Shown here one piece after another: positions 1 to 1,409 of a DNA stretch of 35,543 nucleotides; position 1 is the stretch's first letter, and each line of letters starts with the position of its first letter. The notes beneath the pieces are model-generated. The model was not told where the DNA came from. It made no database searches and worked only from the letters and a program-made list of their open reading frames with translations. Both the position numbers and the translations under genes were made by a program. Source of the DNA: a virus (lineage: Duplodnaviria; Heunggongvirae; Uroviricota; Caudoviricetes). The stretch lies in the IMG/VR virus record IMGVR_UViG_2582581022_000006. One strand, 5' to 3'.

Positions 1-29
1 GATATGGTTGAGGGTTACCTGGTGATGAA

Positions 30-60
30 GTCTCTTGATCAGGAGATCTGATCAAGAGAC
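30..60. repeat. Perfect 13-bp inverted repeat (GTCTCTTGATCAG / CTGATCAAGAGAC) with 5-nt spacer; right arm lies within a 19-mer (44-62) matching the IS50/Tn5 inside end as I recall it
   Basis: Read directly: arms at 30-42 and 48-60. The IS50 inside-end identity relies on memory of CTGTCTCTTGATCAGATCT. Confidence 0.5.
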
Positions 61-150
61 AGCCGCACAGGGGGATTCACCATGCCAGTTTCTTTTAACA
101 AACTCCCCGCAAAACAGACAACTGTCAACCGTCTGAATTGTGAGACATTT

Positions 151-176
151 AAAAAAAAGGCCCGCAAAAGCGAGCC
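151..176 (-). terminator. Rho-independent terminator downstream of the tRNA cluster
   Basis: On the minus strand: 7-bp GC-rich stem (one G-U pair), 4-nt loop, then a run of 8 U. Lies ~15 nt past the 3' end of the tRNA-Arg gene. Confidence 0.6.
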
Positions 177-192
177 GGGAAAATAAGTGTAG

Positions 193-266
193 CGCGTTGT
201 ACTGGAGTCGAACCAGTGACCGATTGCTTAGAAGGCAATTGCTCTGTCCTGCTGAGCTAACAACGC
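193..266 (-). tRNA. tRNA-Arg (anticodon UCU), no encoded CCA
   Basis: Reverse complement folds into a canonical cloverleaf: acceptor GCGTTGT/ACAACGC, T-loop TTCGACT, anticodon loop CTTCTAA. Followed by CTA rather than CCA. Confidence 0.75.
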
Positions 267-279
267 AGAATACCGATAA

Positions 280-355
280 TGGACCACCACCGGGGACTCG
301 AACCTCGCACACTCAACTTAAAGGGTTGACGCTCTTTCCTGATGGCTAGTGGCGG
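280..355 (-). tRNA. tRNA-like gene, degenerate; anticodon UUU by position
   Basis: 76 nt with encoded CCA, good acceptor stem (one G-U), T-loop TTCGAGT and a perfect 5-bp anticodon stem. D-stem has only 2 pairs, T-stem has an A-C mismatch, position 33 is C. Confidence 0.45.
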
Positions 356-356
356 T

Positions 357-432
357 TGGTGGCCCTTGCTGGATTTGAACCAGCGACCTGGCGATTATGA
401 GTCGCTCGCTCTCACCACTGAGCTAAAGGGCC
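357..432 (-). tRNA. tRNA-Ile2 type (gene anticodon CAT, lysidine-modified class), ileX/ileZ-like
   Basis: Reverse complement GGCCCTTTAGCTCAGTGG...CGACTCATAATCG...GGTTCAAATCC...GGGCCACCA closely resembles E. coli ileX from memory, with compensatory acceptor-stem changes, so it is a variant rather than the host copy. Confidence 0.8.
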
Positions 433-441
433 GGGCGCAGG

Positions 442-470
442 ATAATAACGTTACGAAATCAATGTTGCAA
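442..470 (-). promoter_or_regulatory. Candidate sigma70 promoter for the tRNA cluster
   Basis: On the minus strand: TTGCAA (-35), 17-nt spacer, TATTAT (-10), ending ~9 nt upstream of the tRNA-Ile 5' end. Confidence 0.45.
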
Positions 471-537
471 GCATACAAAAATCACCCTTATCTCCTCCAC
501 CAGCGCATTCACCATGTCTATCCGAGATAAGTGGCAC

Positions 538-563
538 AAAAAAACCCGCTTGTGGGCGGGTTT
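538..563 (-). terminator. Rho-independent terminator between the 194-aa ORF and the tRNA cluster (tR'-like position)
   Basis: Stem AAACCCGC/GCGGGTTT with 6-nt loop (542-563). The minus strand has a 7-U tail; the plus strand is also T-rich downstream, so it may act in both directions. Confidence 0.6.
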
Positions 564-627
564 TGTTTGATTTTGCCATCACGTACAAAATCGGCAAAAT
601 ATCAGATTTGCATGAAATATATGCCTT

Positions 628-1212
628 TCAATCTACTTTTGCAACACTTTGCTTTGAAAATGCCGCCTTTTGTTTTGAACGTGTTCTCATTACAAATAAT
701 AAAGCCTCACTATCCAGTCGGTGAAAAATGTGTTTCATTGCAACCCAGTGACGAGTAAATGTTTTGGACCAGTTTTTAGTTGTCACTCCCGCCAGTAATG
801 CCAGCTCCTGATATTCATAACCTTCCCCACCAAAAAGTTCTGCTTTTACTGCCTGCGCCGCCAGCCAGATTAATTTTTTCAGGCGTTCCTGCGTTTTCCC
901 AGCAATTTTTCTGGTACCGGATTGAGTATTAAATTCATTCCACGCCCACTGTGTTATCGCGATCTGATATTCCCAACAAATACTCCCGCTGTAACACCAC
1001 AACAACCAGGCTTTATGATGTTCTTCAAGAGACAGAACAGCCCGCCGCCACGATGATGTCAAAAACTCAACCGGACTGACGAGAGGAATTGACGCCCCCT
1101 TCGCCAGCGATTGCTTTCCCGGGATTGGTGGATTATCCCGCGTTATCATTTTTCCAGTCACTTCATCGCGGTACCGGATTTTTTTACGCCTGTAACGCCC
1201 TGTATCAAACAT
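628..1212 (-). CDS. Hypothetical prophage protein (194 aa); possible late antiterminator (Q-like) by position only
   Basis: Long ORF followed by a strong terminator and then phage-type tRNA genes, matching the lambdoid Q - tR' - tRNA order. No motif recognised. Confidence 0.4.
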   Translation of the reverse strand: MFDTGRYRRKKIRYRDEVTGKMITRDNPPIPGKQSLAKGASIPLVSPVEFLTSSWRRAVLSLEEHHKAWLLWCYSGSICWEYQIAITQWAWNEFNTQSGTRKIAGKTQERLKKLIWLAAQAVKAELFGGEGYEYQELALLAGVTTKNWSKTFTRHWVAMKHIFHRLDSEALLFVMRTRSKQKAAFSKQSVAKVD

Positions 1213-1409
1213 GGCATTCTCCTGCCAGGCCTCAAGCTGCCCTTTTTGATTAGACTTGAGATAAATGACAGGGAATAAGTGAGATATTTATGGGAAGAAC
1301 TGGGTCAAAATGGGAAGAGACTAGGAGGAATATGCAATAACCTTACAGTATGTGAAAATCAGACCGGCCCGAAAAAAAAACAGAACTCGCGCCAGCCTGA
1401 TTGCAGATA

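Follow-up and report, generated by a model that had tools for sequence, protein, structure and literature searches.

The window analysed here is a stretch of 35,543 nt from a Caudoviricetes virus (IMG/VR record IMGVR_UViG_2582581022_000006). Its first 1,246 nt match the late-regulatory region of a lambdoid prophage, with a 5'-truncated gene for the antiterminator Q, transcription signals and tRNA genes, and from position 1247 onwards it matches a transposable phage whose leftward operon ends with the regulator gene Mor. A first-pass annotation of the letters had noted, to the left of Mor, a leftward open reading frame (ORF) of 194 codons, a terminator, a promoter and tRNA genes, the middle one degenerate, and had likened their order to the lambdoid Q-tR'-tRNA arrangement. 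All of these features were recovered in place with ARAGORN, Rfam, Pfam and a consensus scan, and they are listed below with the junction. The reference strain is enteropathogenic Escherichia coli (EPEC) O127:H6 strain E2348/69.

1-62 (no strand given): terminal 62 bp of a copy of ISEc13, an IS4-family insertion sequence (IS), downstream of the prophage tRNA genes; ISEc13 transposase is annotated under the match in E2348/69
159-176 (-): terminator-like hairpin immediately after tRNA-Arg, GGCTCGC-TTTT-GCGGGCC with T8 behind it (consensus scan)
192-266 (-): tRNA-Arg (UCU), argO-type, anticodon TCT (ARAGORN; Rfam tRNA model, 68.1 bits; annotated in E2348/69)
280-355 (-): degenerate tRNA-like gene in the argN position, anticodon TTT (ARAGORN 'Lys-TTT')
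357-432 (-): tRNA with anticodon CAT, annotated as tRNA-Ile, ileZ-type (ARAGORN; Rfam tRNA model, 72.5 bits; RefSeq annotation of E2348/69)
442-470 (-): promoter-like site TTGCAA-17-TATTAT, just upstream of tRNA-Ile (consensus scan; putative function)
541-564 (-): tR'-like intrinsic terminator CCCGC-N6-GCGGG followed by T7, terminator-like on both strands (consensus scan and direct reading)
616-644 (-): candidate PR'-like promoter TTGCAA-17-TATATT, overlapping the end of Q (consensus scan; putative function)
628-1246 (-): 5'-truncated antiterminator Q gene, codons 25-229 kept; the longest ORF, 628-1212, begins at native Met36
1241-1246 (no strand given): predicted 6-bp target CCTTTT, expected again at the right junction (prediction from relatives)
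1247-1409 (+): left terminus of the transposable phage, 5'-TGATTAGACTT..., with a hairpin after the Mor stop codon

Origin of the two sides of the junction

Positions 1-1246 are 100% identical to E2348/69 (four complete O127:H6 genomes); the homology stops abruptly at 1246|1247, and from 1247 the window is unrelated to this strain. In a phage collection, 153-1246 showed 99.1% identity to the late-regulatory regions of lambdoid PPompW prophages and Shiga toxin (Stx) 2a phages, which carry annotations for Q, tRNA-Met, tRNA-Lys and tRNA-Arg under the match. On the phage side, Escherichia phage PhiKM, listed under Bcepmuvirus in its taxonomy line, matches 1246-3000 with 99.9% identity, and from 1247 the window agrees exactly with a phage end that stands beside other flanks in six records elsewhere. 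The change of origin at 1246|1247 is exact and not a matter of chance. It falls within 1213-1409, the interval in which the first-pass annotation had expected a junction without being able to place it, and the four complete O127:H6 genomes provide the uninterrupted ("empty") site for this insertion.

A break of this kind could also be produced by assembly, as a chimeric contig. The window does resemble a short-read contig bounded by repeats, starting in ISEc13 and ending in tail-fibre repeats, and the junction is present in no public record searched. Misassembly is nevertheless disfavoured, and in our judgement extremely unlikely, because chimeras form at shared repeats and the two sides of 1246|1247 have none in common, and because the position of the break agrees, to the single base, with a transposon terminus that is defined independently in six records, as real transposition predicts. 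The window looks like a whole contig with repeats at both bounds: the ISEc13 end at base 1 probably caused the contig break there, and the opposite end (35129-35543) is internally repetitive tail-fibre sequence. Such bounds would explain the missing right junction. As a side observation, a probe of 1-1409 matched 31 places in E2348/69, which suggests that this strain carries roughly 30 copies of ISEc13.

Interruption of the Q gene

The ORF at 628-1212 (-) matches Pfam Phage_antiter_Q (PF06323; E = 7e-77; profile positions 34-217 of 220) and PHROG 304, 'anti-termination protein Q-like'. Its 194-aa product is identical (194/194) to residues 36-229 of the E2348/69 Q protein. Full-length Q, natively 229 aa, is absent from the window: the E2348/69 gene runs 71 nt past the break (23 codons and 2 nt), the window lacks these 71 nt, and the break lies in codon 24. 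Because the ORF corresponds to residues 36-229 and the break falls in codon 24, the insertion is inside Q and not beside it. The reading frame continues through the junction without a stop, but no start codon precedes native Met36. Since the Pfam match to the remainder begins at profile position 34, a conserved N-terminal part of Q has been lost. The 194-aa ORF had correctly been taken for a Q-type regulator; judged by its sequence, however, it is a pseudogene fragment, a 5'-truncated Q, and not a complete gene. In the E2348/69 prophage, rusA overlaps Q upstream. We infer that Q function was lost through the insertion.

Phage termini and target duplication

From 1247 the window reads TGATTAGACTTGAG..., the left end beginning with TGAT. 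In six relatives this left terminus adjoins six unrelated flanks, which makes seven different left flanks including that of the window. The left flanks of the relatives are as follows.

ST131-type strain E41-1: ycaL
EC32: ABC-ATPase gene
RIVM_C036569: hyfJ/hycH
DLI.5a: symporter gene
FAM21845: group II intron reverse transcriptase gene
PhiKM record: Fe-ABC permease gene

Because the base preceding TG varies among the sites (T, C or G), the start of the element can be set at 1247. Within the left end we found two putative transposase-binding 10-mers as sequence repeats, GAGATAAATG at +12 and GAGATATTTATG at +35. The 10-mer G(A/C)GATAAATG occupies +12 and +35 of both ends in inverted orientation, the same 10-mers recurring in the inverted right end, and these paired sites are probably bound by the transposase.

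The right end of the window's own phage lies beyond 35,543, and the right-end data come from complete relatives. In three of these it reads ...GCGCGGCGCATCA-3' (…ATCA), giving the element 5'-TG...CA-3' ends. All three complete copies are flanked by a 6-bp target duplication: TTCTTC, ATTACT and AACAGA (records L002, 3004/42588; L005, 1261/38826; and L006, 2237/40148). A 5-bp duplication of the Mu type was considered and rejected on the basis of these copies. The seven target hexamers show no obvious consensus, and two of the three complete relatives display both halves of the split host gene. The target duplication of Tn552 is 6-7 bp long, with which the 6-bp duplication is consistent. No published target-duplication length for BcepMu was found in the BcepMu literature accessible.

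These termini bear directly on whether the Q-terminator-tRNA segment is instead part of the same phage, a mosaic transposable phage that gained a lambdoid module next to Mor. Phage genomes are commonly mosaic; Q, the tRNA genes and the early operon of the phage share one direction, and Mor and Q are both regulators of late genes. In the six relatives, however, homology ends at the same TG and gives way to unrelated host DNA, and none of the six carries Q or the tRNA genes. The putative binding repeats, counted at +12 and +35 from 1247, mirror the right end; Q is cut by 24 codons at the boundary; and the flank is 100% identical to the resident prophage of E2348/69 including its IS junction. A mosaic phage is thereby effectively refuted, and we assign it a negligible likelihood.

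By analogy with the complete relatives, we predict a simple insertion with duplication of CCTTTT. The right junction would then read ...GCGCGGCGCATCA|CCTTTT|GTTGATCCACTCAAATC, and the predicted sequence beyond the duplication, ...GCGCGGCGCATCA-CCTTTT-GTTGATCCACTCAAATCGG..., would continue into the 5' 71 nt of Q. The left junction could also be real and yet stem from an event other than simple insertion, in which replicative transposition or later recombination deleted or inverted neighbouring prophage DNA. The right junction is unobserved, and transposable phages, as known from Mu biology, cause adjacent deletions and inversions. PPompW prophages, moreover, are often rearranged and take part in inversions (PMC8112680). 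Against this stand the three of three complete relatives that are simple insertions with clean 6-bp duplications, two of them with both host-gene halves. We therefore regard such an event as improbable, and its corollary, that the 5' part of Q and the lambdoid early region are not on the other side of the phage, as improbable to the same degree.

Neither junction was encountered elsewhere. The exact 28-mer across the left junction (CAAGCTGCCCTTTTTGATTAGACTTGAG) was absent from the genome, viral and metagenome contig collections, an exact look-up of the 194-aa product found none, and among the complete E. coli genomes (5,426) there was none with the left junction. For the right side, a gapped pattern (right terminus, 4-8 nt, Q 5' remainder) had no match in the three contig collections, and a 406-bp synthetic right junction was spanned by no complete E. 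coli genome. In P1-like plasmids the match seemed to run on for 12 nt of the synthetic flank, but this was rejected as a 10-of-12 coincidence.

Host prophage and bacterial lineage

The E2348/69 prophage that matches 1-1246 is integrated at ompW, with the integrase gene adjoining ompW and an ompW 3' fragment at the far end; the segment is thus the late-regulatory part of a prophage and not a core chromosomal locus. The prophage carries nleA, nleH (nleH2) and nleF, the effector set listed for PP6 (PMC5685641), and is PP6 of E2348/69 in that study and PPompW of Nakamura et al. (PMC8112680). PPompW prophages are reported to be widespread and defective, and the E2348/69 copy to give no packaged DNA (PMC8112680). 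In the window, the host prophage is already damaged by the ISEc13 insertion downstream of the tRNA genes.

This ISEc13 copy is also informative about the lineage. Matches that start at base 1 are confined to the four O127:H6/E2348/69 genomes, all other genomes matching from base 63, and among the 5,426 complete E. coli genomes ISEc13 occupies this spot only in O127:H6. Because of the 100% flank identity and the common ISEc13 junction, the source strain is probably a close relative of E2348/69, which would make the host an EPEC O127:H6-like E. coli.

Probable transposition into the host prophage

Together, these observations make it highly likely that a BcepMu-type phage transposed into codon 24 of Q in the lambdoid ompW prophage (PPompW/PP6) of an E2348/69-like E. 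coli. The insertion into a resident lambdoid prophage that the first-pass annotation had raised as a possibility is thus upheld, with the E2348/69 ompW prophage up to 1246 and a transposable-phage end at 1247. The steps of the mechanism are modelled on the phage family. The rve-type DDE transposase of the phage and its AAA+ partner would carry out the insertion, with the transposase bound to the 10-mers that are paired, at +12 and +35, within both TG...CA ends. The phage ends would be joined to a 6-bp staggered target cut at CCTTTT (1241-1246), and repair would leave CCTTTT on both sides. Q would thereby be left without a start codon, shortened by 24 codons and cut off from the prophage transcription that arrives from upstream through rusA. 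PP6 would then be unable to antiterminate its late operon at PR'/tR'.

Several points weigh against this reading. The visible flank comprises only 1,246 bp, and the call of the host lineage rests on the 100% identity and the ISEc13 junction. The right junction lies outside the window and was found in none of the collections searched, and a rearrangement beside the insertion (deletion or inversion), such as transposable phages cause, is possible. As for the loss of Q function, the internal Met36 is still present, with an AGGAG motif 5-9 nt upstream.

This start site raises the question of cross-talk, in which read-through from the Mor operon upon induction would yield Q without its first 35 residues and, if this protein were still active, switch on late transcription of the effector-carrying PP6/PPompW, coupling two otherwise unrelated prophages. 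The leftward operon ending in Mor points at the Q fragment with Met36 and the Shine-Dalgarno-like AGGAG, beyond which lie PR', tR' and the tRNAs. The lost N-terminus, however, spans the conserved profile positions 1-33, ISEc13 already interrupts the late region downstream, and a stable hairpin follows Mor (RNA fold after the stop codon; centroid, -24.8 kcal/mol), which may limit read-out from the phage end. We consider such coupling very unlikely.

If the proposed transposition is correct, the window holds a clean, base-resolved case of one temperate phage inactivating the late-gene switch of another. The type III effector cargo nleA, nleH2 and nleF would be locked in the chromosome, which would represent one route to defective prophages, and the insertion is potentially a useful marker for an E2348/69-like EPEC sublineage. 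All components are known, namely E. coli phages of the BcepMu type, the Q-PR'-tR'-tRNA module of lambdoid phages, PPompW/PP6 and nested prophages. The particular insertion is new (0/5,426 complete genomes), whereas the kind of event and its mechanism are already documented.

Nakamura et al. (2021, PMC8112680) described prophages within prophages in which PPompW contains Stx phages or other lambdoid phages. Nested integration there is site-specific and mediated by an integrase, at a conserved 21-bp attB that adjoins the effector locus at the prophage end. Common to those cases and the present one is a PPompW-family prophage that is itself defective and holds a second complete prophage. In contrast, the insertion described here is transpositional and lies mid-prophage in Q, as seen from the transposon ends, the DDE transposase and relatives at unrelated sites, and it would inactivate a regulatory gene. 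In the examined part of the insert, no gene for an integrase was found.

Late-regulatory module downstream of Q

Read leftward, the segment comprises Q, the PR'-like promoter, the tR'-like terminator, the tRNA promoter, tRNA-Ile(CAU), the degenerate tRNA, tRNA-Arg(UCU), a terminator and the ISEc13 end. The position of the PR'-like site relative to Q and the terminator agrees with the lambdoid Q-PR'-tR' order, and gene order and orientation are those of the lambdoid Q-PR'-tR'-ileZ/argN/argO module of the Stx phages 933W, 2851 and Nil3 and of PPompW. The same tRNA trio is annotated in the PPompW, Nil3 and 2851 records, the cluster being 90-95% identical to those of the Stx-phage records Nil3 and 2851. 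The module assignment rests on annotated phage records and on the map of 933W, which presumably has the ileZ/argN/argO arrangement. Unlike in the Stx-phage module, Q is 5'-truncated, and no stx genes are visible downstream, where an ISEc13 copy follows the tRNA genes instead.

The description of the middle tRNA gene as degenerate was borne out. Positions 280-355 (-) gave no match to the Rfam tRNA model at E<=10, the sole match being tRNA-Sec at 15.7 bits; E2348/69 has no annotation for the gene, and other records give it as tRNA-Lys or a second tRNA-Arg. Because a promoter-like site and a terminator-like hairpin of their own are present, the tRNA genes are probably still expressed. Separately, 540-612 (-), lying between the PR'-like and tR'-like sites, has some similarity to isrJ and isrK, two short RNAs of Salmonella prophages (24.4 bits with E = 0.023 and 21.4 bits with E = 0.017, respectively), both scores lying under the Rfam gathering scores; the similarity would fit a '6S-like' leader transcript from a lambdoid PR'.

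Gene content and classification of the inserted phage

The inserted phage is laid out in two divergent clusters, as listed here.

1410-9432 (-): leftward early/middle operon (Pfam, PHROGs 310 and 296, RefSeq annotation of relatives), with the members that follow
1410-1799 (-): Mor (Pfam Mor, E = 1e-43)
1771-2220 (-): GemA
2645-3364 (-): DUF2786/DUF7168 protein
4422-4952 (-): Gam
5252-6457 (-): AAA+ transposition ATPase
6429-8198 (-): rve DDE transposase
8202-9113 (-): DUF3102 protein
9124-9432 (-): helix-turn-helix (HTH) regulator
9646-10149 (+): CI-type HTH repressor candidate at the interface of the two gene clusters (Pfam HTH_3 and Phage_CI_repr)
10220-12435 (+): low-GC two-gene cargo (GC 0.41-0.42) between the repressor candidate and the Dam methylase
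12425-13195 (-): Dam methylase (ORF list, Pfam, PADLOC)
12425-35543 (+; Dam gene -): rest of the phage, whose plus-strand genes for lysis, head and P2-like tail start at about 13.4 kb

This layout matches the published organisation of BcepMu, in which regulators and transposase lie on the bottom strand, lysis, head and P2-like tail genes on the top strand, and lysogeny control at the interface (PMC2771037); the repressor candidate takes the position of the published lysogeny-control region (PMC2771037). In Pfam, the transposase shows only the rve core. It belongs to PHROG 310, 'transposase', and has weak NCBIfam matches to IS481 and IS21 DDE transposases; neither a MuA-specific Pfam domain nor a MuA chain in PDB was matched at E<=0.01, which supports a transposase other than MuA. 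This agrees with published accounts that relate BcepMu-type transposases to Tn552/IS1604, and TG...CA ends have been reported for the BcepMu group (PMC2771037, PMC2628397). From its gene content, its ends and its identity to PhiKM, we classify the inserted element as a BcepMu-type transposable phage of the genus Bcepmuvirus, about 37.9 kb long. It had been described as Mu-like, for which BcepMu-type is the better term, given the rve-only transposase and a duplication of 6 bp rather than 5 bp.

With coliphage Mu (Muvirus), it has in common homologues of Mor, GemA and Gam, TG...CA ends and near-random, gene-disrupting insertion, and the complete relatives additionally share, at their right end, an invertible tail-fibre segment of the Gin type. 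It differs from Mu in the duplication of 6 bp instead of 5 bp (three of three complete relatives), in a transposase without MuA-specific domains, in a tail module annotated with P2-type names, and in an early operon that is inverted relative to the late genes. The collinear order of Mu (c, ner, A, B, semi-essential, mor, C, lysis, head, tail; rightward after c) was not found in the window. Mor at the terminus is normal, because the early operon of BcepMu-type phages reads toward the genome end, whereas Mor is mid-genome in Mu. A truncated or rearranged Mu as the reason for the terminal Mor was rejected, as complete relatives and the literature (PMC2771037) show this layout to be the normal one.

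Among BcepMu-like phages (BcepMu, PhiKM and the E. coli prophages beside ycaL in ST131-type strains), the divergent clusters, TG...CA termini, an rve-type transposase unlike MuA and many insertion sites are common features. This phage type is common in E. coli, with at least 80% of a probe of 1150-2400 covered in 436 of the 5,426 complete genomes. Positions 3565-35352 are 99.3% identical to the prophage of strain RIVM_C036569, and repeats occur from 35129 on. The window ends inside a repeat-rich tail-fibre gene. Complete copies measure 37.6-37.9 kb, and about 3.5 kb are absent at the right of the window, comprising the fibre tip, an invertible segment, a Gin-like recombinase and the right end.

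What sets the window's copy apart from many BcepMu-like relatives is its NA37-type two-gene cargo and its location inside another prophage. The first cargo gene encodes an NA37/YejK-like nucleoid-associated protein (Pfam NA37, E = 1e-80), and the second a 401-aa membrane protein with about three C-terminal hydrophobic segments. Both products match, in the same order, the NCBIfam DS1_1/DS1_2 anti-phage system weakly (E = 1e-17 and 3e-21, both far under the curated cut-offs), and the second also has a weak PADLOC match to KwaA. The cargo varies among relatives: neither E41-1 nor PhiKM carries it, and it was found in 19 complete E. coli genomes. It probably represents a moron of the defence type and a remote variant of an already known two-gene system. 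An intragenomic second copy in the E2348/69 lineage was considered and rejected, none of the 19 genomes matched by a cargo probe being O127:H6.

Right-end module in complete copies and phage-plasmids

BcepMu itself is reported to have no tail-fibre inversion system (PMC2771037). The complete E. coli copies differ in this respect: beyond the portion covered by the window, they carry at the right end an invertible tail-fibre segment with inverted repeats of 229-231 nt (86-94% complementary) and a Gin-like recombinase (L002, 39825-41876; L006, 37828-40070). The copy in E41-1 (L002, 17700-21781) is interrupted by ISEc23, an IS66-family element, which splits the gene after a DUF3486 small-terminase-like gene, the position of the terminase large subunit in PhiKM; this copy is probably defective.

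The module of BcepMu-type tail-fibre, fibre-assembly, invertible-segment and Gin-like genes is also carried by phage-plasmids of ~92-96 kb with holin and head genes nearby. An example is plasmid p1_000533 (NZ_CP028585.2, record L011), at about 60-4200, to be compared with 35929-40148 of L006. The right-junction probe matched 20 plasmid places. The right-end probe is 98.6% identical to the phage-plasmids, and the homology stops exactly at the terminus ...GCGCGGCGCATCA. The phage-plasmid module looks like the fossil of an earlier BcepMu-type insertion into another phage genome.

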